IMG/VR virus record: IMGVR_UViG_2510065010_000001
Span: 32,001-96,000 of that record
Strand: one strand, 5' to 3'
From: a virus
Taxonomy: Duplodnaviria > Caudoviricetes
DNA: 64,000 nt
Part shown: piece by piece, positions 1-54,964 of the stretch
Layout: each line of letters starts with the position of its first letter
Numbering within the stretch: the first letter of the stretch is position 1
Translations under genes and position numbers: made by a program
Notes under the pieces: generated by a model
What the model was told of the DNA's origin: nothing
Seen by the model: the letters and a program-made list of their open reading frames with translations, nothing else
Database searches by the model: none

Positions 1-57
1 CACTTGTTACTGATATTCCGACTAAGAATAGTAGTCCGATCAAAACTTCCATGAGAG

Positions 58-612
58 TTACTTAAATATGTTTTCAACGCTTTCTTTTGATAAGTTGCTT
101 GGTTGCCATTCTTGACGACCAGAACTAACCCAGGTGCTTACCCTAATGACCTCACCTTTAATAAACTGTCCGATTGGTTCGAAAGAAGTAACCTCACCTT
201 CTTTGAAGGTTGTTTTGATGTTCCCGCAAAACTGGTAGATTTCGCGGCGAGACTCTACTACATAGCACCCTTCATCGTTATGCCGAATTTTGCCGTCAAT
301 GGGGGTGTAAAACTCACCGTCTTCATTAGGTAAGAACGCAACTTCATTCCAGGAGTTAACGGAAGTGACTTTATTAAATACTGAACCTGCGTAGATAGAA
401 CCTGACTGAGGTAAACTACCACGCCCATCGTCTGGACTGTCAGTAGGTGACGTTGAAGGTAAAGGGCGGGGACGGTTACGATCTCGCCACCATTGGGGAG
501 GAGCGTCAGCTTGTGCGTTGTTACCCTTTGTACCAAAAACAGCAGCTCCGATAAGTCCCCCCGCCATTACTAGAGAAATTCCAATAGGAATCAGGATTAA
601 ATTAAACTTCAT
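58..612 (-). CDS. Membrane-anchored/exported hypothetical protein
   Basis: 184-aa ORF; hydrophobic N-terminus, Pro/Ser linker, beta-rich C-terminal domain. Confidence 0.55.
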   Translation of the reverse strand: MKFNLILIPIGISLVMAGGLIGAAVFGTKGNNAQADAPPQWWRDRNRPRPLPSTSPTDSPDDGRGSLPQSGSIYAGSVFNKVTSVNSWNEVAFLPNEDGEFYTPIDGKIRHNDEGCYVVESRREIYQFCGNIKTTFKEGEVTSFEPIGQFIKGEVIRVSTWVSSGRQEWQPSNLSKESVENIFK

Positions 613-931
613 AGAGAAAGAAAGAATTGAATTTCTCTTTTAGCTTATCTAAAGTTCACCCGATTTGCATACAGAAGACACCATTTTCAATACACGTTTC
701 TCTGAAATCAGTAGCCTGTTCAGAAGAAACGTGAAAGTAAAACCGCTCGGTACTTCTGGCAGTTAGTCGAAATTTAGCAAACGTTAACTTCTTTGCATCT
801 ATATCTGACTGAACTAGAAATATAAGCATGTTCGTTAACTATCTATTAACTTGGGCAAGTTAGATACCAGACTTTTTGAAGCAACCAAAATGTGACAGAA
901 GTGATTGAAAACAACGATATGGAGTTAATCG

Positions 932-1150
932 CTATTGAGGTAGATAAAACCTTAAAAGTTTGTAATCTAAATTAGTGATTCCTACCTCTTCCAACTCGTC
1001 ATCTGTAAATAAAGAAGTACCATTGGCAGCACCTAATCCAAGAAAAACTGTTCGATTTCTGAAGAGGTAACTAGCATTCCACAATTCTGTTACATCTATG
1101 TCTTCGTCTGGTAGCTCAAACGAACCTGATAAAGTGAATTCAACTTTCAT
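932..1150 (-). CDS. Hypothetical protein
   Basis: 72-aa ORF in co-oriented run of small minus-strand genes. Confidence 0.55.
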   Translation of the reverse strand: MKVEFTLSGSFELPDEDIDVTELWNASYLFRNRTVFLGLGAANGTSLFTDDELEEVGITNLDYKLLRFYLPQ

Positions 1151-7919: not shown

Positions 7920-7976
7920 AGTTTGAGACGTAATTCAACAGCATAATTATGCTGTTGAATTCTTATGCTTGTGTGC

Positions 7977-8633
7977 TTAATTATTCTCTTGCACCCACGG
8001 AGGTTTTTCAAACTTGTGTTTTGTTTTGTTGATTAGCCTAACACTGACGATGCTGCCTAAGAAATTATTAATATGGTACGGCTCAAGACCCAACGAACTA
8101 ACTACCAAAGTTAGTTCGTCACTCTCCAATTCTTCGTCATTCATCTTCAACCCAGCTGGCAATCCAATCGAAATAGGAAAGGGGTTTAGACTTTCTACTT
8201 CTCTTAACAAAAAACTATGGTTGTAGCCTGAATTAGGCTCTTGCCTACTCATGTAGTGTTTGACTTGGACTAGACTTCTAGCCTCATCATATAGATATTC
8301 ATCTTCGTCAGGAGGTAGCCTGTCAACAAAGTGCCGCAACCGACGTATCTCTGATACGACTTTAAACTCTTTATCTGTAAACACTTCGTCATTGAGATTT
8401 TCCAAAATTGGTATCGAATCTCGATTAATAATCTCGGTGAGTTCCTCGTATCTTTGTTTATTGAAATCTAGAAACGTGTACAACTCCGTAAACAAAGTGT
8501 ATTTGGCTAATTTTTCCCACTTAAAGTAAACGTCTGAAATGGTCTGCTGTTTAGTTAGTACAGACTCTAAAAACCCATGCTGTTTTGCTAACCAAAGTAC
8601 TTGTTCAAGTGACGGCGAATAGTGTGCTTTCAT
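7977..8633 (-). CDS. Cytoplasmic hypothetical protein, putative partner family B (copy 1)
   Basis: 218-aa ORF next to a family A gene; weak similarity to 19281..19964. Confidence 0.6.
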   Translation of the reverse strand: MKAHYSPSLEQVLWLAKQHGFLESVLTKQQTISDVYFKWEKLAKYTLFTELYTFLDFNKQRYEELTEIINRDSIPILENLNDEVFTDKEFKVVSEIRRLRHFVDRLPPDEDEYLYDEARSLVQVKHYMSRQEPNSGYNHSFLLREVESLNPFPISIGLPAGLKMNDEELESDELTLVVSSLGLEPYHINNFLGSIVSVRLINKTKHKFEKPPWVQENN

Positions 8634-22736: not shown

Positions 22737-24134
22737 TCAAGTAGGTCGCGCTACTGGTCGTATAGAACCTTCATCACACCACCCTGTTACTAGGAGTGGC
22801 TTTGAATAGTAACGCTGGCAGAATTTGAGCGCAATATTGCGACACGCATTCAAGCCAGCGTTAATGATTTTTCCAGATCGGGAAACTGCCAAGGAGCCAG
22901 GATGATAACCTTCCGCTTGCCGGAAGTAATCCCAGTTCTCCTCGTCAAAAACCAGCCATTGAGCTTGCCACATCGCACTGACCCGCATTACAGGTTCACC
23001 GCTTATCGCCTCGGTGTTCGATGTGTTTCGAGGGTTGACCCTGGCAGTTAGAATGTTGTGGTCCTGTCGCGCAATCCGGGCTACTTGCTGCCACACTGCC
23101 GACTTCAGCCAGTAAGCTCGTTTTTGGTTTGAACGTCTGGAGTACTTCCCTTTCTGGGGTCGCAACCTAGTCAGGTGTTCAAACACAATGACAGCGCATC
23201 CATGACGAGCGGCAAACTCAGTAATTTGCCGAGCCTGCTTTCTGGCTTGGTCTTGCTCGGTATTACGAACTTTCTGCCAACGGGTTGAGGCAAACCCTTC
23301 GCCAATGATCCCAGTCCGATTCATCGATTGGGCAATCTTGCCGATTCGTGACTTCCTAAGTGTTGTATGGCATTTGTGACCGGATGTTATCATCCGGGCG
23401 ACTTCACGTAATTTGCCATTCACTTCCACGTCGTAGACTGCACATTTGGTGAGTTCCCCATCCAGGTCAAGATCAACCGAGCAGATCCGGCTTCCATCCT
23501 GCATCACCTTGTTTAATCCACCAGTGGCAAGCTGGTAACGTTCCACGACCCAACTTAGCCATGCTGAGCCATTTGCCCTGGTGACCAGGGTGGGGGTAGA
23601 AAGCGTCCATCCCTCTGGGTGCTGGGGAGATTGATAGGTGAATTTAACCCATTTCCAGACTCCTTTAACGACAATCTTCAAGACTATGGACCGCCCGTCA
23701 TCCTCTTTGAACATCCCTGCGTATAGCGTGGCATTGAGGCGTAATTCAGTGGGCAAGGTGGGAGGACGATGCTTCTTGGACGACTTACCCCTCCTGGCTA
23801 ACCGCTTCGCTTCTCGCGCCTGCCAGTTCTGATAACTAGAGCGCCAGGATTTATAGATGCCAATCGCCTTCGCTAAGGCTGCACGTCGGAATAGCTGTGG
23901 GCAGTCAAACGGGAATGTTTGGGCTGCCTCTGGGCTGAAGAATCGCGGTTCATAGTAACGCTTGAAGTCAGCCACATCTACGCCACCTGGGTCCTCTGCA
24001 ATAATCAGCAACCAGAATAAAGCAATATCACTGAACAGTTGATTGGTTTCGGTTAAATCAAATCCATCACGCAGCAACTTGGTTTGCAGCGTTTTAGTTT
24101 CAATTCGATAGCCTTTCTTTTTGCTCAGTGGCAT
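22737..24134 (-). CDS. tnpB: TnpB-family protein with atypical RuvC-III
   Basis: SVDLD, VFEHL, VNPRNTS; RuvC-III reads NAGLNA instead of NADxNA; no zinc-ribbon cysteines. Confidence 0.8.
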   Translation of the reverse strand: MPLSKKKGYRIETKTLQTKLLRDGFDLTETNQLFSDIALFWLLIIAEDPGGVDVADFKRYYEPRFFSPEAAQTFPFDCPQLFRRAALAKAIGIYKSWRSSYQNWQAREAKRLARRGKSSKKHRPPTLPTELRLNATLYAGMFKEDDGRSIVLKIVVKGVWKWVKFTYQSPQHPEGWTLSTPTLVTRANGSAWLSWVVERYQLATGGLNKVMQDGSRICSVDLDLDGELTKCAVYDVEVNGKLREVARMITSGHKCHTTLRKSRIGKIAQSMNRTGIIGEGFASTRWQKVRNTEQDQARKQARQITEFAARHGCAVIVFEHLTRLRPQKGKYSRRSNQKRAYWLKSAVWQQVARIARQDHNILTARVNPRNTSNTEAISGEPVMRVSAMWQAQWLVFDEENWDYFRQAEGYHPGSLAVSRSGKIINAGLNACRNIALKFCQRYYSKPLLVTGWCDEGSIRPVARPT

Positions 24135-28290: not shown

Positions 28291-29061
28291 CTATTCATTG
28301 AATTCTTTTTTGTTTTCTTCAGTTAGGAAGTTCCTAAGTTCTGGGTGATCAGCAATTAAGATTGATAATTTTTTCATCGTTGTTAGGTCGTTTCTGTTAC
28401 TTTCCACAAGGTTGTTTAGGTTATATGCTGCCTCTTTCCAATTCACTATTTCAGTCAGTTCTTTTGCAATTTTGCTAATCTCTTTTAACACTGATTTTTG
28501 ACCTTCTATAGCGTCTGACAGTTCTCTTATATTTCTATTCAGCTGTGCAAACGTTAGTAACAACCCAAAGTCATCTGTCGTAGGTTCTTTCACTTCTTTT
28601 TTATAATTGCTGTCTGCTGCAAACTCCGCTAGTACCCTTATGCCTTTGCGAACCGGGTCTTTAAGTCTTATTGTTATTTCGTTTATCAAATAGTTTATTT
28701 TCTCTAATTTCAGTTCTCTTAACTTGTCTTTCAGCGTTTCTAATTCTTCATCTGGACCGCAGTTTAACGACCCGTTTAGGATTGGGTCGTACTTATTGAT
28801 CAACTTGTTTTCAAGTTCTCTTAGTCCATTAGTGCTTGCTTCTAACCACGCTATGTGCACATCTCTTTTGTCAACTAAGAATTCCAACTTATGATGTCTT
28901 CTCCACCTGTCTTTTATGTTGGTGCTCATTCCTATATAAAGTATTTCTGTTCTACCTAGTACGAAGTACACTCCTGCTACTTCTGGTAGGTTACTTCTAT
29001 TACTTACTGCTACCTTAGGTAGTTCAGTTATGTTGACTTCATTTATGCAGTAAATATCCAT
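28291..29061 (-). CDS. GIY-YIG nuclease with C-terminal coiled coil
   Basis: GVYF..LYIG.S.N...R...H, E..LI....P.LN. Confidence 0.85.
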   Translation of the reverse strand: MDIYCINEVNITELPKVAVSNRSNLPEVAGVYFVLGRTEILYIGMSTNIKDRWRRHHKLEFLVDKRDVHIAWLEASTNGLRELENKLINKYDPILNGSLNCGPDEELETLKDKLRELKLEKINYLINEITIRLKDPVRKGIRVLAEFAADSNYKKEVKEPTTDDFGLLLTFAQLNRNIRELSDAIEGQKSVLKEISKIAKELTEIVNWKEAAYNLNNLVESNRNDLTTMKKLSILIADHPELRNFLTEENKKEFNE

Positions 29062-31916: not shown

Positions 31917-32015
31917 TAGGGTCGCATACACAATTGTTTAGGGTCGCTGACAGAATGCTTTAGGGTCGCAGCTATACTTATTTATGTTCACCCTAAAGAT
32001 AGGTTTTAGGGTCGC
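31917..32015 (+). repeat. Iteron-like TAGGGTCGC, 4 copies
   Basis: Copies at 31917, 31939, 31961, 32007 (spacing 22, 22, 46). Confidence 0.85.
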
Positions 32016-33255: not shown

Positions 33256-34650
33256 CTACACCGCACTTCGTGTCGGTGTAGGCTTCTGGCACATTTTTAA
33301 TGTTTCCAGAACTTCCTTCGAGGTACTATTAGTGGTAGATTCAGTTACCACCAGATTCCCTCTACGGCGTTTTATCGTGGGGAACAGTCCCAGCCCCACA
33401 CGCTTTAGGTTGATTCCGGCGTTAATATCCCGGTCAACCCACAGCATTTCAGATTCATCCCAGTACCCTCGAATACTGCAATCCGTGAACACAAATTCAT
33501 CACGATACGCCAGTAATTGAGATGTATATGCAGGTTTTACTGCCATTGTCCTAGCTCCAGCTTTTCCAGCTATGTATTCTAGGACTTTGAAAAAGTTACC
33601 AAATGCAGCATCATTCCAAGATTTGTTCAATCCTGATTTGGCTGATTGCCCATTAGGGAGATAATTACCATCTTGGTCTTGTTTTGCTTTATTCCTTTTT
33701 GATAAAGCTTTTAGATTTAAGTCTTCGTGGACAAAAACTTTTTTACCAGTTCTGACAAGTCTATGAGCAGTTTTAAAAGCGTGGTCTTTCCTTGCTCTGG
33801 CTATGCGCTGATGTTCTCTTGCTTCTCGTTTTGCTAGTTTGCGTCTTGCTCTACTACCTTTCTTTTTAGTAGACTTGCGATGCGACACTTTGGCTAGACG
33901 TTGTTCCGACTTTCTGAATGATTTCAGTGCAGGGAGTTTGGTATTTTCGCTAGTAGCTAGATAATCATCTTCATGGAGTACCGCATCAATCCCAATCGTG
34001 TTTTCCCATGTTGGTACTATTTCGTCATGGGTGAACTCCGGTACGCTTGGATCTTCTAGACAGATAGTTAAATACCACCCATCAGCTTTTAAGGTAAGCA
34101 GTGCATTTTTGAGCGTAAACCCTTCAGGTAATGGTCGGTGCAGTCTTACCTTTACCCAACCTTTGAGTTTAGAAAAAGATAAAAATAACCAGTCTTTCTC
34201 TACACGCTCTATCGTTATAGCTTGCCCTTCTATCTTCATAGTGCGGTAACGAGCAGCATTCTTAAATCGTGGTTTACCACTACGATTGCCGTTACCATCA
34301 CCCTTAATAAAACGCCCAAAAGCCAAGTCAACCCGTTTGCAAACATCTTGTAATGTTTGGGAGGGTACGCGAGAAAAATCTAGTAACTCGCCAGAATGAG
34401 CGACTTTTATCAAATCTTCTTTGATAATTGGTAACTGTTTTTTCTGGGAGTAAAAATCAGGATTGTCTCGCAGTTGAGGTAATGAGCAGATTAACGGGCA
34501 AGCGTTAATACTATTGCGGTTATTTTCCCACCAATCAAATCTATCTCCTAGTTGCTTGTTGTACCAGTATCGACAGACTCGCAACCAATAATTGAGTTCT
34601 AGTTTTTGATTGGTATTTGGATAAGTTCGATACTGATAATTAAGCAACAT
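33256..34650 (-). CDS. tnpB: RNA-guided endonuclease TnpB
   Basis: YQYRTYP HTH start; RuvC GIDAV / HEDL / DRDINA. Confidence 0.92.
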   Translation of the reverse strand: MLLNYQYRTYPNTNQKLELNYWLRVCRYWYNKQLGDRFDWWENNRNSINACPLICSLPQLRDNPDFYSQKKQLPIIKEDLIKVAHSGELLDFSRVPSQTLQDVCKRVDLAFGRFIKGDGNGNRSGKPRFKNAARYRTMKIEGQAITIERVEKDWLFLSFSKLKGWVKVRLHRPLPEGFTLKNALLTLKADGWYLTICLEDPSVPEFTHDEIVPTWENTIGIDAVLHEDDYLATSENTKLPALKSFRKSEQRLAKVSHRKSTKKKGSRARRKLAKREAREHQRIARARKDHAFKTAHRLVRTGKKVFVHEDLNLKALSKRNKAKQDQDGNYLPNGQSAKSGLNKSWNDAAFGNFFKVLEYIAGKAGARTMAVKPAYTSQLLAYRDEFVFTDCSIRGYWDESEMLWVDRDINAGINLKRVGLGLFPTIKRRRGNLVVTESTTNSTSKEVLETLKMCQKPTPTRSAV

Positions 34651-36597: not shown

Positions 36598-36670
36598 CCC
36601 AGAGTGCAGGATTCGAACCTGCGTGGGGCATCTTAGAAGGATGCTGCTTAATCCGCTCAGCCAACTCTGG
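36598..36670 (-). tRNA. tRNA-Arg (UCU)
   Basis: Cloverleaf: acceptor CCAGAGT/ACTCTGG, anticodon arm GCATC-CTTCTAA-GATGC, T arm GCAGG-TTCGAAT-CCTGC; CCA not encoded. Confidence 0.93.
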
Positions 36671-36845: not shown

Positions 36846-37409
36846 TTACATTCCTAAACTTGAATTTACCTGCTTTGTGTTTAATCCGTATTTTCTTGCC
36901 CATTTACGTGCAGCATTGTCGCTTACTCCATATTTTAATCCTATTGCAACCCAGGACATCTCTGATATATCTTTTTCAAGCTCTTCTTTAGAAGGTCTGT
37001 TAACTTTTCTCTTTGCTATTGCGCTGCATTCATTTGAGCAATATTTTTCATTTAAGGTTGATTGAATTATCTCATTGCAGGTCATACAAAATCTGGCACC
37101 GTCTACCGCTTTTCTTTCTTGGCTGCTAATTTTGAAGTTTCCTTCGTATGGTGCTCCAATACTAATCCAATAATGCAGTTTTGTATGTTGACTATTTTCT
37201 ATAACAATTAGGTTTACGCTTCGGTTGTCATCTCTTATGCCATTAAGGTGATGAACTACCTCGTTTTCTCTGATTTTTCTGTTAATACTGTTTTCTGCCA
37301 CTAAAATGTGCTCGTACACATATCCTAACCAGTTTTCACTTTTCATAGCTCTTGCGTGTTCTGGCTTATATATCACTCTATAACCGTTCAATATTCTTAC
37401 TGATTTCAT
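36846..37409 (-). CDS. HNH homing endonuclease with C-terminal Zn/HTH domain
   Basis: YVYEH.LV.E..VHHLNG.RDDNR..NL; CxxC, YCS.EC, IG.KYGVSDNA.RKW. Confidence 0.88.
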   Translation of the reverse strand: MKSVRILNGYRVIYKPEHARAMKSENWLGYVYEHILVAENSINRKIRENEVVHHLNGIRDDNRSVNLIVIENSQHTKLHYWISIGAPYEGNFKISSQERKAVDGARFCMTCNEIIQSTLNEKYCSNECSAIAKRKVNRPSKEELEKDISEMSWVAIGLKYGVSDNAARKWARKYGLNTKQVNSSLGM

Positions 37410-37996: not shown

Positions 37997-38659
37997 ATGC
38001 CAACTGAAGAACTGCAGGAAATTCAAGAGATTATCGAGGCTTACAACAAACTAGGGCAGCTCTTGCAAAATTATCTAGGCAATGCCCCTTCTGTCCAGAA
38101 TAGTAACGGAAGCGTTGATATTAAGGGCAGCAAAAAGGGTAGCAAGAAAGGTGACACTGGAAAATCTAACCATTTACTCACTTACCCATCTATATATATA
38201 GATGGTGCTTGCCAATCAACCGAGGGTGGTTGGGGAGTAGTCGTTTATTTGGATGAAGGCGTTACTTTGGAGCGGGGCGGTTACGTTGCAGATACAACTT
38301 GCAATCGCATGGAATTGCAGGCAGCTATTGAAGCTGTCCGGTTGTTACAGCAACTTAACTTAGAGCTTGATTATAAAGTTCCTGTTTACACTGACAGCCA
38401 ATACGTCCAGAAAGGTATCACAATCTGGATTAATAACTGGAAGCGCAATGGTTGGCAGGGTTCATCAGGTGAGGTGAAGAATGTTAGTTTATGGGTTGAA
38501 CTGGACACACTTAATAAAGAAGTGTTAGTCGATTGGAGATGGGTGAAGGGGCACATTGGTGTGCAGGGAAATGAACGTGCAGACTTCATTGCAACAGCGT
38601 TTGCTGCTCAAAAGCAGATAACTTTACACAACAGTTTTGATTTGTCTGCTTTTGAGTGA
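37997..38659 (+). CDS. rnhA: Ribonuclease HI with N-terminal extension
   Basis: YIDGAC, NRMELQA, YTDSQY, WVKGH, GNERAD. Confidence 0.93.
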   Translation: MPTEELQEIQEIIEAYNKLGQLLQNYLGNAPSVQNSNGSVDIKGSKKGSKKGDTGKSNHLLTYPSIYIDGACQSTEGGWGVVVYLDEGVTLERGGYVADTTCNRMELQAAIEAVRLLQQLNLELDYKVPVYTDSQYVQKGITIWINNWKRNGWQGSSGEVKNVSLWVELDTLNKEVLVDWRWVKGHIGVQGNERADFIATAFAAQKQITLHNSFDLSAFE

Positions 38660-40643: not shown

Positions 40644-41605
40644 CCGCTAATTAAAACCTGATGAAATCTGTAATTTCTACAGAAATCTAGGCTTTCGCAA
40701 TCGTAGCGGTACGATTACTGCACCGTGGGTTCGCACCACGCTTAGAAGTGCTTTTACGCTTGCTCTGCACTCTGCCAGAAGGTTCGGCACAAAGCATGGC
40801 CTCTAATTGGCTGTTAGCCAGTGTAAAATACTGATGCCGTCTGATAGGCTTCAGCTTGTTATGTAGCGTGTACCATGCTGACCATACGTGCTTTGCCGAC
40901 TTCACATCAGCATAGGCGTTGCGGTTAGGTACACGCTCTGACAATCTCATGGCTCTACGCGCTAGAACCATTGCAGCAGCGGTATCCAAAGATAGGCCGT
41001 ACTGTCTCATAAATTTCACTAATCCAATCGTTGAACTATAGGCAGGATTGACTTTAATCAATTCAATTCCTGCCAGTTCACATTTCTGCTCCAGCAACGT
41101 GGTGAACTTGCCATAAATAAAACCTGAGAGCATCCTCGCATACCGCCTACCTTGCTCTCTCATCTGTGACTTCTTACTCTGGAAGTCCAGATTTTCAATC
41201 ACAATTGGGCACCGAAAGGTTTGAGCCAGTGTTACCAGTTGCTTCGTCACATCATGCAACGTGGCGGCAATCTGACCAGATCGACGGCTATGCAAGTTGA
41301 TTTTGAACTGGCCGTGATGCTTCAGGTTGCCGTCTCGATCCACGTATGTCCAACCGATGACACCTGGGTTAATATCCACTCCCAAGCAACCATACTGTTT
41401 TGGCAAGCTCTTACGGTCTGGAACTAATTCCCCGGTCTGCTCCCACTTGCGGAGAGTCTCTATTGAAACCCCTAGCAAGTCTGCTGCTACCCCTATCTTG
41501 ATAAATCTGCTTTTAGGAGAATGCACCGCTAACTTGTACTTTAGACTGCATGTAATGTTCAAGCATCTCAATCCTACGGATATTGATCGCAGCATACCTA
41601 CGTTG
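40644..41605 (-). mobile_element. Internally deleted IS607-family element
   Basis: MerR-type HTH of serine transposase (IGVAADLLGVSIETLRKWE) fused in frame to TnpB RuvC half (GVDINP, IENL, VNPAYSS); ends approximate. Confidence 0.8.
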
Positions 41606-41629
41606 GAAACTGCTGAGGCGTTTATTAAT

Positions 41630-41735
41630 GCTGAAGAGGAAGAGAGTAGGGAAGAGTGCACGGCGTAGGTAAGAGTGGGAAGAGTGGGAAGAGCGGGAAG
41701 AGCAGATTGGATTGGGAAGAGTGCACGGCGTAAAC
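41630..41735 (+). repeat. Purine-rich GGGAAGAG(T) repeat cluster
   Basis: gggaagagtgcacggcgta twice plus 9-bp tandem units. Confidence 0.8.
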
Positions 41736-42055
41736 ACCCTTGAAATGAAGCGTGGGAAGGGTTAAGTTTACATTCTGATGAGAGGATTAAATAGACGGCT
41801 ATTACAGGGTTAAAAGTGAGCACATAATCAACGTAGAATGTGCTAGTAAAAAAATTGCCGATCGCACTCTTCCCATATAGCGCGCCCACCCCCAAACTCT
41901 TTACAATACTCACTCCCGAATTTTCACACCCCCTCTAAAATGCAAACCTCAGCCATTCTCCATCGGATGAGGTTTGCATATGAACCTGCCAAATGCTTTC
42001 CCGGCTGTAGGCAGGTTCTACTTTTTGGGTATAAAACTAATATGCTTGTATTACC

Positions 42056-44993: not shown

Positions 44994-46871
44994 CTACGCG
45001 GCAACTTTTAAGTCATCTGGTGTAAACCAAACAAACTGAACGTTGTCTTTGATCCAAGTGAAGGCTTCATCATCGTTGAGTAGTAACTCACCCATTGCAG
45101 CCCTGTCCTTTACACACATCCCAATGATGTTATCCATCTGATAGATAACACACGTTTCGGATTCAGATAAAACGCTGGCTTTAGGATTCGCTACGTATTC
45201 AACTTCCATAAGTAAATGGTCACGCACCCAAACTTTGCTGTCGCCAGCGTCAGACCAAACGGCTGGGTAAACCTTTTGCCCCAAGGCTCTAAACATCCCT
45301 ATTTCAGCTTTGGTAATAAATTGCTTCACTCGATGTTCGCAATGCACCACTTTATTAAGGATGTTTGGTTTGTTGCACAGGATATGCAAATATTCCGGGT
45401 TTGTCACCCGACTGCACACAACATACAACAACCCGTGAGTTTTTCTCCCACTATTCAGGTGATACACCAGCGGTTCGTTGATTGTTAACCCTTGGCACTT
45501 CCAAGGAGTCATTGAATGACACAGTACGCCGGGTAAAGCCCTGAATTTACCAATGGGTTTACCCTTTTTCCCAACAGGAAGAGGAACATCAACAGGGCTA
45601 ATCCAGTGAAGTTCACCATCTGGTAACTCAATCTGAATACGTGTCGGTTCAAGCTTCTTGATTATTCCAACTGTTCCGTTAACCAGCTTCTCGCTGATGT
45701 TCACTCGAACCATGAACTTTAACCCAGTTGCCAGAGTCATCTCTTCACTTAAAGGAGCCACTTCTTTGAGAATTCGTGCTCTCAAAGATTTAAGAGACTC
45801 ATTATCTGAAGTCGCCATCCCCATATCAGCAGTGTAAGTTCTGATCGTCTCACCCCGCTGCTTCGCAGCTTGAAGAACAACTTTGTTGTGGTCTGCTACT
45901 TCTTTATTAGTATTGAACAAGTGGATCGCATCATCTAATGATGCCAAGTCCAAACGTTCGTTACTTCTAAAGTTAATAAAGTCGTCACCTCTTTGGGTCC
46001 AGACTCGACTTAGTAACCGAGATACTTTTGGGTGATTAAAGTTGTTACCGTCACCCATCTCGTTTAGAGCTTCCACAAACCAACCATCACTACTTTTCTG
46101 ACGATGATTAGTAACGAGCGAAATTGCAGTTGCTCTCCAAGGTTGCTCATACTTTCTACGCTCTAATTCAAATGGTCCTTCACCGTCTACTAGCATAGAG
46201 CCGTATAGTCGAACATCATCTTTGTGAGAGCCAGCTTGGTGAAACTTAGCCTGCTCAAATGCCAAACTGTTAAAAACCTGCCAGGGAAGATTTTCTTGTT
46301 TGTCAATGATTAACAACTGACGGAAGTCACCAGTCAGGACAAATCGAACCCGACGGTTTGGACAGCATCGTTTAATAACTTGGTAAGTAAGTACCAAGTC
46401 CTCAGATGAAACCATTGACATTTCATCAATGAACACAACTAAGTCGCATTTCTCACGAGGATCAAAGTTAGCTGCAACATCTTCGGCTCTAGCGATCGTG
46501 CTGACACGAATCCAATGGTCACTGCAGAAATCGCGCATTCCAGCAGGAAGTGTAGACCCACCTGCACGTAATCCTGCAAACTTATTAAGTGTGCCTTCAC
46601 CTTGAGCGTTTCTGGCAGCAACACCTGTGGATGCACACACACGTACTTCATGTCCCTGCATTTTGAGCAAAGTTCTAGCTGCATTAATGATGAAAGTCTT
46701 TCCACTTCCACCTCTTCCTAACAACGCAATGCAATCATATACACCTGACCCAATTGTTGACATAGCTACTAATTGGTCGTCACTCATCGTTTCCCAGTAA
46801 GGCAAATCTTGAATTGCCTCGTTTTGATTAGATAACCAGGCTTTTGCAGCTAGCAAATCCATCTCTTTCAT
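44994..46871 (-). CDS. Pif1/RecD-like SF1B helicase
   Basis: GRGGSGKT, ASTGVAA, DEMSMV, GDFRQL, LVNGTVG, KCQGLTI, LYVVCSRV. Confidence 0.92.
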   Translation of the reverse strand: MKEMDLLAAKAWLSNQNEAIQDLPYWETMSDDQLVAMSTIGSGVYDCIALLGRGGSGKTFIINAARTLLKMQGHEVRVCASTGVAARNAQGEGTLNKFAGLRAGGSTLPAGMRDFCSDHWIRVSTIARAEDVAANFDPREKCDLVVFIDEMSMVSSEDLVLTYQVIKRCCPNRRVRFVLTGDFRQLLIIDKQENLPWQVFNSLAFEQAKFHQAGSHKDDVRLYGSMLVDGEGPFELERRKYEQPWRATAISLVTNHRQKSSDGWFVEALNEMGDGNNFNHPKVSRLLSRVWTQRGDDFINFRSNERLDLASLDDAIHLFNTNKEVADHNKVVLQAAKQRGETIRTYTADMGMATSDNESLKSLRARILKEVAPLSEEMTLATGLKFMVRVNISEKLVNGTVGIIKKLEPTRIQIELPDGELHWISPVDVPLPVGKKGKPIGKFRALPGVLCHSMTPWKCQGLTINEPLVYHLNSGRKTHGLLYVVCSRVTNPEYLHILCNKPNILNKVVHCEHRVKQFITKAEIGMFRALGQKVYPAVWSDAGDSKVWVRDHLLMEVEYVANPKASVLSESETCVIYQMDNIIGMCVKDRAAMGELLLNDDEAFTWIKDNVQFVWFTPDDLKVAA

Positions 46872-46940
46872 ATGTCCCCCTTAAGACTTGAATCGTTCAA
46901 AAGTAAACAAACAGGGGAGGAGTTACCCTCCCCTACCGAG

Positions 46941-48041
46941 CTAAAACAAATCAAGGTCAATCTCTACAACCTCTCCTTGTATCGCTACTGCAATCGTTTT
47001 GCAGAACTCCCAGCATTGAGCAACTGTGATTGATTTCTCAACCAAGCTCAAAGATGGGTTTATGGTTGTTAGCCAACTTACGAAGTTGTCAACCATCGAC
47101 TTGTGTGTGTCTTCTCCAGCAACATCAAACTGCCCTTTGGATATTAGTGCTGCCATCTCTGCAGTCAACTTAATAAAATCTTCCGGGCTTTCATAGAAGT
47201 CAGTCACTTCTCCAGACTTTGAGATGTTCCTACAGGCTGCAACTTCCTTAGCTGCTGAATAAATATCCAGTGCACAAGCACCGTTCATATCAGCAGCGTT
47301 CAGTTCTTTCTCAAACTTTGCTATCACTTCTGGGTTCGTTGTACCCAGATCCATACCCTGGATTACTGGAATCAACGTACCAAAAATGACATCGTATGCT
47401 TCCCAGCTTAGACCTCCTAGAGGTACTTCGTAAATCTCAGCAAGGATCAGGACTAAAGATTTGTTCTTTGTGAACTCTGGAGGAGTCCAATCTGGGAACA
47501 GTTTCTTTAGGTCGTCTTGCAAAGACCAGACAAGGCTCAAGTACAGATCAGCTGTTAAGAACAATCTATGCACCCAACCAACAGCCTCTTGAAACATCAA
47601 GGTGCTTCCTTCCAGCATCCCAGGCAAGCTCTTTCGAGTTTGCTTGTCTCGTAAATCAGTCGAGCATAAGTCAATGCTGAGATTCTTTGCACCCAAACCA
47701 CGTTTCTTGGCTACTGCCTTTTCAGAAGGTACGTTGTAGTGGTCACCCCAATAGGCACCACCTGGTACTAGTTGATCTGAACCTGTCCTTTTAACTACGT
47801 TACTAACAACATCATCAAATGTCGTTAACTCTAAGTTGGAGTCTCCTGCATCGCAGAATACTCTGTTATCACCATCACAGTCACCCGCATCACGTACATT
47901 ACCGATCGGGCTAATGTACGCAGTATCTTCTTCAAACCAATCTGCAAGAGGATGATCATCGTAAATGACACGAACCTTCATAATAGAAGGTGTTGTCATG
48001 GGAGCACGACTCATCATTACTTTCTTTCCGTCTAAACTCAT
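46941..48041 (-). CDS. Two-barrel RNA polymerase, catalytic (beta'-like C-terminal) chain
   Basis: VMMSRAP (cf. beta' VLLNRAP) and AGDCDGD (cf. NADFDGD); RBS GGAGGACAT before ATG 48041. Confidence 0.8.
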   Translation of the reverse strand: MSLDGKKVMMSRAPMTTPSIMKVRVIYDDHPLADWFEEDTAYISPIGNVRDAGDCDGDNRVFCDAGDSNLELTTFDDVVSNVVKRTGSDQLVPGGAYWGDHYNVPSEKAVAKKRGLGAKNLSIDLCSTDLRDKQTRKSLPGMLEGSTLMFQEAVGWVHRLFLTADLYLSLVWSLQDDLKKLFPDWTPPEFTKNKSLVLILAEIYEVPLGGLSWEAYDVIFGTLIPVIQGMDLGTTNPEVIAKFEKELNAADMNGACALDIYSAAKEVAACRNISKSGEVTDFYESPEDFIKLTAEMAALISKGQFDVAGEDTHKSMVDNFVSWLTTINPSLSLVEKSITVAQCWEFCKTIAVAIQGEVVEIDLDLF

Positions 48042-48122
48042 ATGTCCTCCAAGAAAATGAGTAAGCGGAGCCAAACTGACTCCGCTCGGTGTACGACGTG
48101 ATATTGGTCATTGAACTGTTAC

Positions 48123-51100
48123 TTAACTGAAAACTCGTTCCATCAAAGAATGAACCGAGTTCTTACGAGCAGAATCCCGCACCCACACTTCATTTACAGG
48201 GATACCTGGTAACGCCATCGTCTTTGCCTGCATGGACATGCGGCAGAACGCAGCAGATTTTACCAAAGCACCACTCTCAGTCAACTTCGTAAGAGCACCC
48301 TTTGCGCGACCCGCAAGCTGTAGATATTCAGGACTATTCGTTGCAGCACCGTTGATGTATTGAACAACCAGTTGAGTGATCAGGTCACTCATTCCATCTA
48401 CACTTGCAAAATCTGTATTTGCATCCTGTGCTGCCACAGCGGGTAGGTACACACTGAAGTGCCCCTTAATGCCACAGCAAACACTGAATACACAATTTCT
48501 AAACATTGGAGCCAGAAGTTTCAACAGGTTACCTGCATTAACCGGGTTATTAACCAGGTCACGAAGCTCCTCGGTTTGCAGCAGACTAGCTGCATTTGAG
48601 TCGCCTAGCATATACATTGGTAAATCGTTTCCACCTTTGGCTTTGATGGTTTGATTCTTTGCCATCGCAAAGAATACAGCAGATTTGTGGACCTGCTTGA
48701 ACCCATCCTTTACTAGTCGTTGCGCAAACGCAGGATCTTCTGTCTCAACAGCACGGGCTACTCCAGCCATCAAAGGTGTTTGTCCTACACTTGCACGAAC
48801 ACTTGACAACTCAGCTTTCACTGGTTGCCACACTGCACCCGTCTTATTTGTCCCTGCATAAGACCAAGCACGTTGTACAAAATACTCCACACCTTCAACA
48901 GTGTAAAACACAAGTACGTTGGTCTTATGGTTTTCAATGCACCCGTCAGCATAAACTTCAATGCTTTCTGCATTACTTGGGATGGCATACCCTACAGAAG
49001 TAGGTTCAACCGTTTCCCAACCTTTTGCACCCTTGTACATTTTCTTCAGCACAGTAGTCCACTCTGCAGAAGCGTCTGCATGTCTGAACCAAATTGCGCG
49101 TCCGAACTTGGCTTCAAACCAGTTGATTAGCTGCTGGTATTTACCCATTACAGCCAGAACTGGTGACCACTCCAGATAATTCGCACCCTCAACCCCGACT
49201 AAAGAGTTACACTCTTCAATCAGTTTCAAACCTTCTGCATCGGCATTATTAATTGCAGTGCATACTGCAACATCTGCGATAGATTGCACCAGGTCTAGCC
49301 ACTTATTTGTGTCTGCAAAGAATACAGACCGTGCATTCAACTCTGCGTTGAGGTTGTTGTGAACAACGTCAGGTGTGTAGCGGGAAAGCATACACTTGAT
49401 ATTGTTCCGACCTTTGATTTGATGTTCTCTAGTTTGTGTCACTAACACAACTTGCAGAGTGGTGCGGTTCCCTGCAACTTTAGCCAACCGCCAGCGGATC
49501 TCTAGCAAGTAAGCATCAGGAGTGTTATTTGTGATGGTGTGTCTAAAACAACCCTCTTCTGTAATGTAAGGTACATCACAGATAGGTTCCTTATCAGCAA
49601 TCCGCAATGGTTGTTCCATGCGAATCACTTGCCAGCCTCTACGTTCAAATTGCTGACCACCAACCAATGACACTACAGCACCCGCTAATTCCTCCTCCTT
49701 AATTACTCCTGGTACATTAGGTTGTACCGTTTGCGTATGTTTGACTAACAGTGTTGGTCCTTCACCCCAGTAAACTGCCATACCAGCAGGAAAAGTGGCA
49801 TGAGGTGAAACTACTGCTTCCACAACCCAGTTATTACTTGATTCAACAGATTGACCAAAGCGTTTCAAGCCTCTGGTACTTCCTCCTTCCAGCAAACCAA
49901 CACAAGCTGCGTCCATTGCTGTACGCTTAATCAGCTTGGCTAATTTAGAAGACAACCCGATAATTAGATGCTGAGAAGCAGTCTTAATAACCTCCTCGTC
50001 AGAACCACTCAAACCAAACTGTTGACGGGCATATTCTGCAATTGCAGCTTCAGTGTTGTCAGTTAGCTGACTTAGCACTTCCCGCACAAACTGCTCACGC
50101 AGCTCGCTTGGTACGTGCTTTGCTTGGATGCAACTGCGACGACCATCGATAAACTGACCCCGTGGCATACGAACTAAGTTGAACCCTAACAAAGCACTAC
50201 GGTCCACAACATGCTTTGCAGGTAACTTTGCACCCTTTATTTGGACACCGTTCTTCTCTACATCACCAAGACTGGTTACTCCAATCTCACGGTTGTAAAT
50301 AACTTTGGTGTTCCATTCACCGTCTACTTGATACCGAGCAAACCCAAAGGGCATATCGGTTGCAGATAATCTGGTGACCGTAACATAACGGTCGTAGTAA
50401 GTGCGATCGCCATCATAGGCTTGCGCTTCATCATCTGACTGCACTGGCAGCTCAACGAACATTTTCTTAGATACCAACTGACCCAATTCAGGAACAGGAG
50501 CAGTTAGATATTTTGCACCCAACATGACCAATCCGTACAGGAATGTGCCATAGCTATTAACTAAGGACATGTCTTCTGCAGGAATGCGTACTCCACGACC
50601 ACGACCAGTCAGGCTGCTAACCAACAGCATGTTATTAAACCGTAGGTTACGGCTAACTTCAAACACGCCATCCTTAGCAGTGACTCGGAATTCGTACTCG
50701 TCGATCCACACGCTGAAACCATCTTCTCCGGTGGCAGACACTTGAATAGGTGAGACACCACCTTTACAGAGTGCTCCTGCTAACCAATCAATTACAACTG
50801 CAACGTCAGCTTGTGTTGCATTGAAATCAAAACAACGGGTCCAGTTGTGATCGACGTATACGATGCGGTCTTGCACCCCAAACACTTGCTCAATCACTGG
50901 ACGAGCAAGTGCATAAGTTAATAACTTGAACTCTACTCCTAAGTTGGCGTAAACACCTGTCAAGAGAGCTTGACGTACACACCATTCTTCTAGCGCGTGT
51001 GTGTGAGCTAACCTCTTAACAATTTCACCGTCCTTAATCAAAGAACGGTATTGAGACATTGCAGTACCCAATACAGAGGGTTGTTGTACAAACCGACCGT

Positions 51101-51440
51101 ATTGTTTCAGCACGTCAAGTCCTGCAATGTGCAGACTGTTGTTACGGGTGTGATCTGCAAAGTAGAACACTTCATCCAGCTCAATAGGAAAAGTAAGTTG
51201 AGCTGTTTGTCTTAAACGCAAATAACACCATGCAGCAAACAAAGAAGCTTGCACAGAGCTTACAGCGTTAATAACGTTGTTGCTCAGAATACGACCAGCA
51301 AGCTTCTCACCCATAACAGCGGTAATAGCTTCACCAGGTGTGAGCTTACTTACAGCTGCGATATTGAATTGTGTGCGACCTTTCATAGCGTAGAAAGGAT
51401 CAGCAAGTACGTTCCAGTTGTTGTTCAATTGTAAATCCAT
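48123..51440 (-). CDS. Two-barrel RNA polymerase, large chain (beta-like + start of beta' barrel)
   Basis: IKGRNNIKCMLS (cf. beta DKMAGRHGNKGVIS); C-terminal RMSMQAKTMALPGIPVNEVWV (cf. beta' RVDYSGRSVI..); RBS GGAGGACATC. Confidence 0.65.
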   Translation of the reverse strand: MDLQLNNNWNVLADPFYAMKGRTQFNIAAVSKLTPGEAITAVMGEKLAGRILSNNVINAVSSVQASLFAAWCYLRLRQTAQLTFPIELDEVFYFADHTRNNSLHIAGLDVLKQYGRFVQQPSVLGTAMSQYRSLIKDGEIVKRLAHTHALEEWCVRQALLTGVYANLGVEFKLLTYALARPVIEQVFGVQDRIVYVDHNWTRCFDFNATQADVAVVIDWLAGALCKGGVSPIQVSATGEDGFSVWIDEYEFRVTAKDGVFEVSRNLRFNNMLLVSSLTGRGRGVRIPAEDMSLVNSYGTFLYGLVMLGAKYLTAPVPELGQLVSKKMFVELPVQSDDEAQAYDGDRTYYDRYVTVTRLSATDMPFGFARYQVDGEWNTKVIYNREIGVTSLGDVEKNGVQIKGAKLPAKHVVDRSALLGFNLVRMPRGQFIDGRRSCIQAKHVPSELREQFVREVLSQLTDNTEAAIAEYARQQFGLSGSDEEVIKTASQHLIIGLSSKLAKLIKRTAMDAACVGLLEGGSTRGLKRFGQSVESSNNWVVEAVVSPHATFPAGMAVYWGEGPTLLVKHTQTVQPNVPGVIKEEELAGAVVSLVGGQQFERRGWQVIRMEQPLRIADKEPICDVPYITEEGCFRHTITNNTPDAYLLEIRWRLAKVAGNRTTLQVVLVTQTREHQIKGRNNIKCMLSRYTPDVVHNNLNAELNARSVFFADTNKWLDLVQSIADVAVCTAINNADAEGLKLIEECNSLVGVEGANYLEWSPVLAVMGKYQQLINWFEAKFGRAIWFRHADASAEWTTVLKKMYKGAKGWETVEPTSVGYAIPSNAESIEVYADGCIENHKTNVLVFYTVEGVEYFVQRAWSYAGTNKTGAVWQPVKAELSSVRASVGQTPLMAGVARAVETEDPAFAQRLVKDGFKQVHKSAVFFAMAKNQTIKAKGGNDLPMYMLGDSNAASLLQTEELRDLVNNPVNAGNLLKLLAPMFRNCVFSVCCGIKGHFSVYLPAVAAQDANTDFASVDGMSDLITQLVVQYINGAATNSPEYLQLAGRAKGALTKLTESGALVKSAAFCRMSMQAKTMALPGIPVNEVWVRDSARKNSVHSLMERVFS

Positions 51441-51476
51441 GATGTCCTCCAAGAAGTAAAATGTGAGTGAAAGAAA

Positions 51477-52661
51477 CTAAGCAAACGGATTTGGTCTTTT
51501 AGAGATGTTGCCGATGGGCATACTTTCGATAGGTTCTTCAACATCTTCTTCAGACTCTTCGCAGTAGTCATCATCTGCTACACCAGAACTAGCTGTCTCT
51601 ATGTCCATAAGTTGAAATTCATCGTCTTCTTCAACGGAAAGGTGCTGAAGCTTTTCGAGAATTGCAGCAGAGGTCATTTGAGTAGCAGTAGGCTGGGTAA
51701 CAGGAGTTTGAGTGTTAGCAGTTACTTCAACTTTGCTCTTTTGAGGAAGAGGAGTTTCAGCAACTTTGGTTGCAACAGTTGGCATTCTGCGTTCTACTTT
51801 TGGAGTAGGAATACCAACTTCACGACGGGACCGTGCTTGCATCACCTCTTCAGCAAGCTTTTCTTTTAGGCTCTTACCACCAACCATCAAGTCTGCTCTA
51901 ACACGGAGTTTGTTCAACCCAGTAGCTAGAGCGGTAGAGCTACCAACTTTCCGACCACCAACTAGGTAAGCTCCGTTAAATGCAGCACCCCAGAACGGTT
52001 GACCGTCAACACCATCAAAGGATTTTGTGTACTGAGGAAATCCAACCATGCAAACTAGAAACTGCTCTCCAGCAGCAACACCTAATTCGTCTGCCAGGTC
52101 GTTCATTAACTCCGTAAACTGCTGACGGGCAGCATCGTGATAGTCAGACCAGTTATCAACTGTTCTATTTGCAGTAGATAACTGCATAGAAACTGCTGGA
52201 CGGTCTTCCCCCTTGCGATTAAAGGGTTCTCGATACATTACAGGTACAGGCACAACTAAGTCGTCATCACCATAAAACTCTGCTTCTACAAACAGGTCTG
52301 GTTTGACAACCGCGTTCTTACCCCATTCACCACAGGGTAGATACTTAGACTCTTTAGCAAAAGCAGCATTACGAATGCTTGGTGATGCGTAGGTCAAGTT
52401 ACCGTCTTTATCTAGACGAACTGCAAAGACACCTACACATACACTTTTCGCTCTAAACTGCTTTGCAGGTGCAACGGCAAGGTCAGAGCGGAATACAAAC
52501 AACTCCCGTAGGCGGGAGGGAACCATGTTGAGGTCAACATCTTCGATGTCAACACCAACCGGACGTAATCCTAAGTCTTCTCCGATAGAAGGGCTACCAG
52601 CTCCGCTATCTCCTAGACCCTGTTCAATTAACTCAACAATTGTCTCGCTTAAAACAGTCAT
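51477..52661 (-). CDS. Hypothetical protein with acidic tail (SSB-like or RNAP accessory)
   Basis: 394 aa, first large gene of the RNAP operon, ends acidic..PNPFA. Confidence 0.65.
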   Translation of the reverse strand: MTVLSETIVELIEQGLGDSGAGSPSIGEDLGLRPVGVDIEDVDLNMVPSRLRELFVFRSDLAVAPAKQFRAKSVCVGVFAVRLDKDGNLTYASPSIRNAAFAKESKYLPCGEWGKNAVVKPDLFVEAEFYGDDDLVVPVPVMYREPFNRKGEDRPAVSMQLSTANRTVDNWSDYHDAARQQFTELMNDLADELGVAAGEQFLVCMVGFPQYTKSFDGVDGQPFWGAAFNGAYLVGGRKVGSSTALATGLNKLRVRADLMVGGKSLKEKLAEEVMQARSRREVGIPTPKVERRMPTVATKVAETPLPQKSKVEVTANTQTPVTQPTATQMTSAAILEKLQHLSVEEDDEFQLMDIETASSGVADDDYCEESEEDVEEPIESMPIGNISKRPNPFA

Positions 52662-53987: not shown

Positions 53988-54654
53988 CTAGCAGTGATAA
54001 AGGTAGCCAAACCAAGTTTGGAGTAGTTCGTCTAAACTTGCAGTAACCATTTTGTGTACTGATTTCACGTCTGCATCTGCATTAATTCGGATGATTGCCC
54101 TGGGATACTGTTCGTGCAACTGCTTATAGACAGCTCGAACTTTTTCGTGAAAGAGTAATGATTCTTCGTCGAAATGATTGTTTTGGACTCTGACTTTAAG
54201 ACGCTCTAGCGCTATTTGTGGAGACACGTCTAACCATATAGTAGTACTCGGTAATACTCCTTGCACACTAAAGTTGTTTAACCAATTCAAAATACCCATA
54301 TTAAACCCACGACCGCCCCCCCTGATATGCAAGAGTGGAGTCGATAAACCGATCGCACAGTACCAGATTTCCCTTTATTAGTTCAGGTTTAATAACTCTT
54401 GAAACATGCTCAGCACGGTCAGCTTGGTAAAGCAACAACTCTGCGTGGGTGGATAGCTTATTGTTCAGTAGTAGTGAATGCAACTCTTTACCTAACTCAG
54501 TACCACCTGGCTCTCTTGTTACGATAATCTTCTTCAAACCCTTTTCTATTTTCTCTTTCCAACCACTGGTTTCTAACCACTGCACTAGCATGATAAGTTG
54601 TGTGGTTTTTCCAGAACCATCTATTCCTTCAAAGGTTACTAACTTTCCGTTCAT
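53988..54654 (-). pseudogene. tmk: Thymidylate kinase, frameshifted at a G7 tract
   Basis: [29 protein letters not shown]; second half continues in another frame after 54316-54322. Confidence 0.88.
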
Positions 54655-54661
54655 AAAATTC

Positions 54662-54964
54662 CTAATCAATACTAATTCCACGGCAGCGCGTGGGGATTCC
54701 GTAACTAAATGTTGGTCTTGCTAAAATGAATGCATCAAGCACCAGTACTTTACAATCCCACGGCAAAATAACGGATCGACCGTGACTTACAGTACTAAAC
54801 CGACACGTTTGAGTTTCTTGATCAAGCTTAATAAAGGGTATCTCTACCCAAATTTCTTTCTCTTCAAATGCCTGCTCCATCCATTGAGAAGGTACCTTAG
54901 CTTTTATAGGAGTTTGCATACTCGCATGTAACTCCAAATCACGTAAAGTTATTGGTTGTGTCAT
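54662..54964 (-). CDS. Hypothetical protein
   Basis: 100-aa ORF, coupled. Confidence 0.55.

Follow-up and report, generated by a model that had tools for sequence, protein, structure and literature searches.

Gene organisation of the locus

The stretch of DNA analysed here (the window; 64,000 nucleotides, positions 32,001 to 96,000 of the IMG/VR virus record IMGVR_UViG_2510065010_000001) carries on its minus strand four consecutive genes, which encode in this order an open reading frame (ORF) of 394 residues (51477..52661), a large chain of 1105 residues (P0001; 48123..51440, stop codon included), a small chain of 366 residues (P0002; 46941..48041, stop codon included) and a Dda/PIF1-like helicase of 625 residues (44994..46871). 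The two middle genes probably specify one very divergent two-barrel polymerase, whose catalytic double-psi beta-barrel (DPBB) is predicted to be divided between them. The large chain would contribute a beta-like module and, after a connector, the initial third of the catalytic barrel; the small chain would supply barrel strands 3-6 with the metal-binding loop, followed by a helical region. The 394-residue gene opens a conserved block, with homologues at the same position in a 582-kb metagenome contig (L006; 431 residues, 43% identity) and a 195-kb IMG/VR viral contig (L010; 388 residues, 34% identity, E = 1e-47), and its product has no match in Pfam or PHROGs.

Both chains are preceded by the same ribosome-binding site (RBS), the exact 14-nucleotide motif TTCTTGGAGGACAT, located at 51442..51455 for the large chain (ATG at 51440) and at 48042..48055 for the small chain. 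One exact copy stands before each of these start codons and no other occurs in the window. When up to two mismatches are allowed there are four matches in the window against 0.57 expected, a number reached in none of 100 shuffles; the two further matches are inexact and lie on the plus strand. The 81-nucleotide spacer between the chains (48042..48122) contains, besides the second RBS, a terminator-like hairpin of 11 pairs with an imperfect T tract (48063..48087). The 95 nucleotides around this hairpin fold at -25.1 kcal/mol (z = -2.26), and an equally good fold was obtained in 0 of 200 shuffles. A sequence-only reading of the window had already described a shared RBS and an intervening hairpin, and both are borne out here. 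Another terminator-like hairpin, of 12 pairs, lies immediately 3' of the small chain (46910..46937). The hairpins after the two chains resemble intrinsic terminators and could set the ratio in which the chains are made. An Rfam scan of the whole window returned a transfer RNA (tRNA) only, and a scan for sigma-70-type promoters gave 16 sites against 22.6 expected, that is, no signal.

Two other accounts of the interruption were considered and rejected. An intein or intron joining both halves does not fit a spacer of 81 nucleotides with no Rfam match, and an artefact of a contig end does not fit a window that is internal to a single contig of 5.53 Mb. The reads of one DNA sequencing run yielded four contigs of 151-215 nucleotides, and the junction is crossed by none of them.

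The large chain resembles beta and Rpb2

An AlphaFold2 model of the large chain, built from a 30-row alignment, has a mean predicted local distance difference test score (pLDDT) of 88.1 and a predicted template modelling score (pTM) of 0.82. Foldseek returned 112 matches to this model in the PDB at E <= 1e-3, and the best 50 of the 112 are all second-largest RNA polymerase subunits (top match 9dvs_C, 1.1e-5); the subunit types among the matches listed comprise bacterial and plastid beta, archaeal B and Rpb2 of Pol I-V. A second structural aligner, applied to the Foldseek matches, gave Z scores of 9.0-9.8 over 399-508 aligned residues. Most of its rows pair model residues 1 to 886-912 with nearly the whole of Rpb2 or beta (for instance Rpb2 27..1104-1154), and six begin near model residue 207. 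A search of 48,161 chains that was independent of Foldseek likewise placed second-largest subunits in all nine top positions (Z 7.1-8.6), among them the vaccinia, African swine fever virus, phiKZ and AR9 enzymes, the next row standing at Z 5.2. In these structural alignments residues 1-912 (48705..51440) superpose on beta/Rpb2 in the same order, and as modelled, residues 1 to about 900 have the beta/Rpb2 fold and domain order, with no comparable score for other folds.

Among predicted viral structures the best matches of the large chain come from Acinetobacter phage ME3 (E = 1.1e-12) and Microcystis phage MaMV-DC (1.9e-7), with poxvirus and giant-virus Rpb2 homologues ranking next. The former is an uncharacterised protein of 798 residues (BFVD A0A172Q0S6, Acinetobacter phage vB_AbaM_ME3; template modelling score 0.42 by target), and this match between models suggests that further jumbo phages may encode beta-like proteins not yet recognised as such.

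The motif IKGRNNIKCMLS (residues 675-686; 49383..49418) holds the basic residues proposed for the active site of the beta-like barrel; in it K676, R678 and K682 are invariant in 30/30 aligned relatives. Across 24-30 relatives the invariant columns of the large part are K676, R678, K682, N698, D710 and K713. Just ahead of the basic motif the model shows a small beta-sandwich insert (residues 566-672; 49425..49745) with weak structural matches, both to biotinyl/lipoyl-type hybrid barrels (Z 4.3-5.2) and to the flap of Escherichia coli beta (3tbi_B, Z 4.5, model 564..671). A sandwich-barrel hybrid insert of the flap type in the beta barrel is a feature of the multisubunit clade (PMC7824862); hence, if the insert is real, the enzyme would stand closer to that clade than do YonO or the RNA-dependent RNA polymerases (RdRPs).

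The catalytic barrel and the position of the cut

A DPBB bearing the D-x-D-G-D motif is the most conserved element of cellular RNA polymerases. The large chain itself lacks DxDGD. The small chain begins with MSLDGKKVMMSRAP, followed by TAYISP and then by AGDCDGD, which contains the predicted metal-binding aspartate triad (D54, D56 and D58; DCDGD, residues 54-58, 47868..47882). An arginine and a proline, R12 and P14, lie in the segment SRAP (residues 11-14; 48000..48011). R12, P14, G53, D54, D56, G57 and D58 are invariant in 28/28 aligned relatives, and R, P and G-D-x-D-G-D make up the invariant columns of the small part across 24-30 relatives. The motifs that the sequence-only reading had picked out in the two chains occur as described, and the invariance of these residues shows that they are more than chance. 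An R-x-P about 40 residues ahead of the aspartate loop corresponds to R446/P448 of Rpb1, according to the section of PMC2919709 cited here. In section 8 of the same paper, Ruprich-Robert and Thuriaux name eight residues common to all two-barrel polymerases. Six invariant columns of our family match six of these eight, and K676, R678 and K682 are candidates for the two basic residues on that list.

For a structural view of the junction we folded, in place of the window pair, P0040, a natural 573-residue fragment of a fused relative that spans it (pLDDT 83.2, pTM 0.82). In BLASTP, residues 857-1105 of the large chain align with P0040 2-236 (E = 6e-38) and residues 2-342 of the small chain with P0040 237-549 (E = 6e-32), so that the window proteins abut on the consecutive residues 236|237 of P0040 and nothing is lost between them. 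The P0040 model contains a DPBB at about residues 197-311, which matches p97/CDC48 N-domains (Z 9.5-9.8 over about 90 residues, root-mean-square deviation about 2 Å), the designed DPBB 7dww (Z 8.9, 85/86 residues aligned) and the DPBB of VAT (Z 8.4). Before the junction lie strands 195-205 and 215-219 and helix 227-234. After it follow strands 242-246, 254-261 and 275-278, helix 282-286, the DFDGD loop 289-293 and strand 294-300, which places the DxDGD loop after helix 2 and before strand 6 of the barrel. Because the two alignments abut at 236|237 within this DPBB, the large chain would give two strands and a helix, and the small chain four strands together with DCDGD. In terms of the model, the cut falls in the loop that connects helix 1 to strand 3 of the catalytic barrel, and residues 1064-1105 of the large chain (48126..48251) are predicted to form the first two strands and the first helix of the beta'-like DPBB. 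The earlier suggestion of a beta-beta'N fusion with a separate catalytic chain agrees with both models, the predicted DPBB being that of the fused homologue and not of the window's own pair.

Taken as a whole, P0040 finds its best structural match in ZmRDR2 (Z 12.2, 306 residues aligned), with QDE-1 (Z 9.9-10.5, 305-351 residues), phage P74 gp62 (Z 8.9, 275 residues) and P23-45 gp96 (Z 8.4, 190 residues) also matching, as do several largest RNA polymerase subunits. The ESM Atlas offered no usable match; the structure it gives for the small chain is of poor quality (pTM 0.19), and it contains none for the 394-residue protein.

Relatives of the enzyme and the ancestral one-chain form

A phmmer search with the large chain gave 71 relatives, 49 of them at E <= 1e-10 and 28 at E <= 1e-30. 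The motif D-x-D-G-D is present in 59/71, about 50-70 residues past the end of the matched part. Among the 12 relatives without it, three break off within the motif and most of the others are short fragments, while P0012 and the fragment P0031 terminate at the break point of the window. Since the motif follows just past the large-chain end in 59/71, the one-chain form is the ancestral one, a single chain of about 1440-1470 residues. The closest fused relative, P0014 (58% identical, 1471 residues), reads without interruption through ...SVYGMMQSTYK-CKE-LDGRKVIMSRAP, and its counterpart in the window is ...SVHSLMERVFS, a stop codon, 81 nucleotides and then MS-LDGKKVMMSRAP. The spacer replaces a linker of three residues in the fused relatives. 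Conservation of DxDGD among homologues, and the existence of both fused and split forms, had been named beforehand as points to check; in most homologues the two parts turn out to be fused, and the members of a close clade share the window's split site.

Searches with tblastn found no match for either chain among 50,697 phage records and none for the small chain among 72,556 plasmids; the small chain had no match in 40 related genomes (34 at >=90% complete), and two scans of genome contigs for relatives found none. A 2319-residue ORF on a 189.8-kb IMG/VR contig (L002:6083-13042) shows 27% identity to small-chain residues 11-228, and is probably, from its sequence, a polymerase-helicase fusion of the same family.

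Two shorter observations concern other ends within the family. P0085 (1125 residues) ends at the same junction yet groups with fused relatives (support 96/95), and may represent a second, independent cut or else a truncated record. P0015 and P0087, related proteins on different contigs, both end in ...EDHLQ, 12 residues past DNDGD; these ends may mark a second cut site of the family, right behind the catalytic loop.

A probable RNA polymerase and its helicase partner

We consider it rather likely that the two genes form one very divergent two-barrel nucleotide polymerase, whose most likely role is that of a DNA-dependent RNA polymerase transcribing phage genes. This reading is favoured because the large chain is beta-like throughout, and because the well-studied phage members of the superfamily are all transcriptases, as stated in the parts of PMC5467207 and PMC10770324 cited here. 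It is also favoured because replication could be handled by other genes on the same chromosome, namely a PolA-like DNA polymerase (a second family-A enzyme) in three pieces, one of them with a TAA (C1:802321-803984), and a second DnaG-like primase gene (C1:786552-786824). These lie outside the window and probably belong to the same prophage. Finally, a giant ORF of 3311 residues with GDFDGD at about residue 2271 starts at 57922 and runs past the window end (L004:726-10661), directly upstream of the portal, head, sheath and terminase genes. A giant DxDGD protein together with a smaller enzyme recalls the pairs of virion and non-virion polymerases of phage P23-45.

In the window's clade a spacer of about 80 nucleotides, consisting of stop codon, hairpin, RBS and ATG, has taken the place of the three-residue linker that joins helix 1 to strand 3 in the modelled barrel. 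If the reading as one enzyme is correct, both chains would fold together, two strands and a helix joining four strands to close one barrel, and this shared catalytic barrel would sit beside the K-x-R-x3-K motif of the beta-like barrel. The enzyme would make RNA on a DNA template and may cooperate with the neighbouring PIF1/Dda-like helicase. The pair might also serve as the intracellular ('non-virion') partner of the giant DFDGD protein that heads the virion genes.

Several results weigh against such a transcriptase. Neither chain matches a polymerase family in Pfam at E <= 1 or in PHROGs, the only Pfam rows for the large chain being DivIC and DUF5817_CT, far below the cut-offs, and 24 fused relatives match no Pfam family at E <= 0.01, RdRP included. 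A profile of these 24 relatives found in the PDB sequences only weak rows, QDE-1 at E = 0.34 and Pol IV at E = 1.9; each row covers the R-x-P...DxDGD segment, and by itself neither reaches significance. An hhalign comparison of the family profile with YonO gave a probability of 0.1%, that is, no similarity. The DPBB is known here from P0040, a fused fragment of only 28-32% identity, and Foldseek found nothing for this beta'-like model at E <= 1e-3; its weak rows are nearly all largest subunits, the first being chain d of the AR9 non-virion RNA polymerase (nvRNAP; 7s00_d, 5.5e-3). The flap-like match of the large-chain insert is weak (Z about 5). The invariant aspartate of the second barrel in known enzymes (Rpb2 D837, QDE-1 D709, in the part of PMC2919709 cited here), the eighth of the common residues, has its best candidate at position 560, which is E or D in 19/30 relatives and so not invariant; D710 and D716 show little or no variation, but are found C-terminal to the basic motif. 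The prophage may also be in decay, with six TnpB-type ORFs, a thymidylate kinase present as two ORFs and a PolA in pieces. Lastly, in structural comparisons the catalytic half scores highest with RNA-dependent enzymes, and the partner gene conserved beside it encodes a DNA helicase.

These last two points are also the basis of the main alternative, which we regard as unlikely, namely that the two chains form a two-barrel polymerase that copies helicase-opened single-stranded DNA or RNA, producing primers or regulatory or interference RNA, and is no general transcriptase. RDR2 (Z 12.2) and QDE-1 (9.9-10.5) lead the structural matches of the catalytic half, and QDE-1 works with a helicase and a single-stranded-DNA-binding protein. 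The helicase next to the split enzyme (Pfam AAA_30 2e-13 and PIF1 5.7e-8; PHROG 325, Dda-like helicase, 8.6e-36) follows directly after the polymerase in 3/3 loci read (the window, L006 and L010), and is fused to the polymerase C-terminus in 3/4 long relatives tested (P0020, P0023 and P0028, not P0026); the sequence-only reading had not noticed this conserved link. In L010 a fused form of 1442 residues stands between the 394-residue homologue (34%) and the helicase (42%, E = 2e-144). Moreover, the block lies among genes of nucleotide and replication type, with thymidylate kinase and RNase H. Two points speak against this alternative, although neither is decisive. About 900 residues of the large chain match beta/Rpb2 and not the N-terminal parts of RdRPs, and the DnaG-like gene and PolA-like pieces lie on the same stretch of chromosome, so that priming need not rest on the split enzyme.

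Persistence of the split

Judged from its relatives, the split is genuine and common to a well-supported clade, and both halves have stayed intact and conserved since. In a tree of 14 rows (the closest relatives and three outgroups, out of about 76 relatives), the split large chains P0001, P0012 and P0083 form one clade with support 100/100, whose sister is the fused pair P0014/P0084. Separate small-chain relatives comprise eight proteins of 357-373 residues and one fragment of 223 residues (57-68% identity), and every catalytic residue is kept in the eight. In L006 all four genes recur in unchanged order with the stop at the same point, and the spacer there contains a hairpin of different sequence, then six T, an RBS and an ATG. 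Comparison of the window with L006 shows saturation at synonymous sites (proportion of synonymous differences, pS, 0.78-0.80; of nonsynonymous differences, pN, 0.27-0.29; both chains), and the polymerase genes, with 63% and 60% identity, are the best conserved of the four, the neighbours reaching 43% and 52%.

These comparisons bear on the possibility that the split gene is decaying, in which case the two ORFs would be what a nonsense mutation or an insertion has left of it in a dying prophage. Decay might be expected in this prophage, given its numerous ORFs of transposon type and at least one gene with a frameshift. Yet in L006, at 60-63% identity, the cut recurs at this point, the downstream ORF has an RBS and ATG of its own and both ORFs are full length, and since the two are intact despite saturated synonymous change, the pattern is unlike that of a decaying gene. 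The retention of all catalytic residues in the eight separate small chains, and the high conservation of the polymerase genes among the four genes compared, also argue against decay, which we therefore hold to be very improbable. The view of the sequence-only reading that the split looks genuine is upheld.

A further possibility is that ribosomes bypass the 81-nucleotide gap, with take-off at the last sense codon and landing on an identical codon after the downstream ATG, as described for T4 gene 60; in that case some of the product would be one continuous chain of 1470 residues. The last sense codon is indeed repeated both in the window (AGT-TAA ... ATG-AGT-TTA; 48123-48128, 48036-48041) and in L006 (AAG-TAA ... 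ATG-TCT-AAG-TTA; 7939-7944, 7992-8003), each with a hairpin within the gap, and if bypass occurred the difference between AGT and AAG would amount to covariation. Nevertheless, bypass and a product of this kind both seem extremely improbable: a strong RBS and a normally spaced ATG suffice to explain the downstream ORF, the codon pattern was spotted post hoc at two loci only, and a third pair, P0012/P0004 (known as proteins and paired solely by their common contig of 137,349 nucleotides), is mismatched, the large chain ending in Cys and the small chain starting with M-A-L-N-N.

Comparison with known two-barrel polymerases

Like the polymerases of the Thermus phages P23-45 and P74-26, the split pair is phage-encoded, has both barrels and no known accessory subunits, and lies far from the cellular enzymes. 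These phages possess a non-virion enzyme (gp64/gp62) and a virion enzyme fused to the tape measure (gp96), as described in the part of Chaban et al. 2024 (PMC10770324) cited here, and a giant DxDGD protein in the virion region is likewise present in our phage. However, there is no detectable sequence similarity, and the Thermus enzymes are single chains, whereas here the catalytic barrel is divided between two genes and some 900 residues of the large chain look beta-like. Activity has been demonstrated for the Thermus enzymes, while the split pair is known from genes and models.

QDE-1 and RDR2, two-barrel polymerases of eukaryotic RNA silencing, match the structure of the catalytic half best, and QDE-1 (E 0.34) belongs to the only polymerase-related rows in the sequence-profile search. 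They differ in that the N-terminal 900 residues here are of beta/Rpb2 type, with no Pfam RdRP, a bacterial virus as the setting and two chains. YonO of the Bacillus prophage SPbeta is, like the split enzyme, prophage-borne and divergent, with the invariant R, P, three D and two basic residues, but the pair is linked to a helicase, is split and amounts to 1471 residues against the 839 of the yonO product. The total of about 1470 residues given by the sequence-only reading is hence correct, while its term 'minimal' applies only in a relative sense. Papers of 2010 (PMC2919709) and 2017 (PMC5467207) had noted 'YonO-like' proteins in firmicute and cyanobacterial genomes, giving no particulars in the parts cited here, and the former speaks of 'cyanobacterial gene products' of broadly this sort.

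As in the jumbo-phage enzymes of phiKZ and AR9, the catalytic subunits are spread over several polypeptides, and the AR9 nvRNAP is found among the matches of both halves (7s00_C, Z 7.3; 7s00_d). In the phiKZ/AR9-type enzymes the beta' split follows the DPBB and coincides with the cyanobacterial gamma/beta' split, according to the part of PMC7598289 cited here. The present cut, in contrast to both, would lie inside the DPBB, ahead of the catalytic loop.

A more distant likeness exists in the Microcystis phage Ma-LMM01. Its gp064 (L005:31334-36355, 1673 residues, annotated as 'hypothetical protein') aligns with the family by hhalign with a probability of 92.5% (E = 5e-7, 272 columns), and the alignment covers R-x-P and the loop GDADGD. 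By this profile alignment gp064 is a distant fused member of the split-polymerase family; tblastn with both chains detected no similarity to it. Ma-LMM01 also has the giant gene (gp080), head and sheath genes in the same order. Unlike the pair described here, gp064 is a single chain with no helicase annotated beside it. It adjoins the early-gene block gp054-gp063 of PMC5780444, a transcriptome study in which all phases of Ma-LMM01 were assigned to the host sigma-70 and no phage-specific promoter motifs were reported.

Prophage setting and other genes

The host chromosome is cyanobacterial, as seen from 18 matches to phycobilisome proteins, which among the control genomes are found in Synechococcus only, and genes for portal, major head, tail sheath and large terminase are found just beyond the window. 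By its gene content the element is an integrated prophage of myovirus type, distantly related to Ma-LMM01. The sequence-only reading had spoken of a cyanophage; the element is an integrated prophage and not a free phage. The giant ORF weakly matches gp080 of Ma-LMM01-group Microcystis phages (29% over 160 residues, 9 records). When the family was compared by hhalign with the giant ORF and with Ma-LMM01 gp080, only the DxDGD neighbourhood aligned, with probabilities of 1.7% and 0.9%, respectively. BLASTP of the giant ORF against P0062, a relative of 3301 residues, found nothing (E = 0.73), and the giant protein is for this reason not claimed as a paralogue.

The region is, by its ORFs, heavily colonised by putative mobile genes. 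Six ORFs of TnpB/IS605-OrfB type or from related transposons lie at 10339-11727, 12671-14227, 17295-18677, 22737-24134, 33256-34650 and 40687-41913, and other mobile or nucleic-acid genes encode GIY-YIG (28291-29061), HNH (36846-37409) and RNase H (37997-38659) proteins. A tRNA-Arg(TCT) is located at 36598-36670. The thymidylate kinase gene (53988-54681, minus strand) consists of two overlapping ORFs in different frames, one of 126 residues (positions 1-100 of 185 of Pfam Thymidylate_kin) and then one of 114; this break is a frameshift or a sequencing error.

Implications

Single-chain and multi-chain two-barrel phage polymerases were already known. Our literature searches turned up no paper that names the split-polymerase family, reports it from Ma-LMM01-type phages or describes a cut within the catalytic barrel, although the supplements of PMC10770324 (Data 3, 23 polymerase families) and PMC2919709 (Data S2, 'cyanobacterial' YonO-like proteins) may list the family.

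If Ma-LMM01-type phages have polymerases of their own, the model in which the host sigma-70 alone serves all phases (PMC5780444) needs to be re-tested. The family comprises helicase-fused forms, single chains, forms cut inside the barrel and perhaps forms cut after the catalytic loop, and with this range of layouts it offers a compact system for studying how subunit boundaries of polymerases are gained and lost. A barrel closed by two polypeptides, with two and four strands, would, if true, be a fold assembled in trans away from its symmetry point, and such an assembly would bear on the origin of the barrel and of the multi-subunit polymerases.

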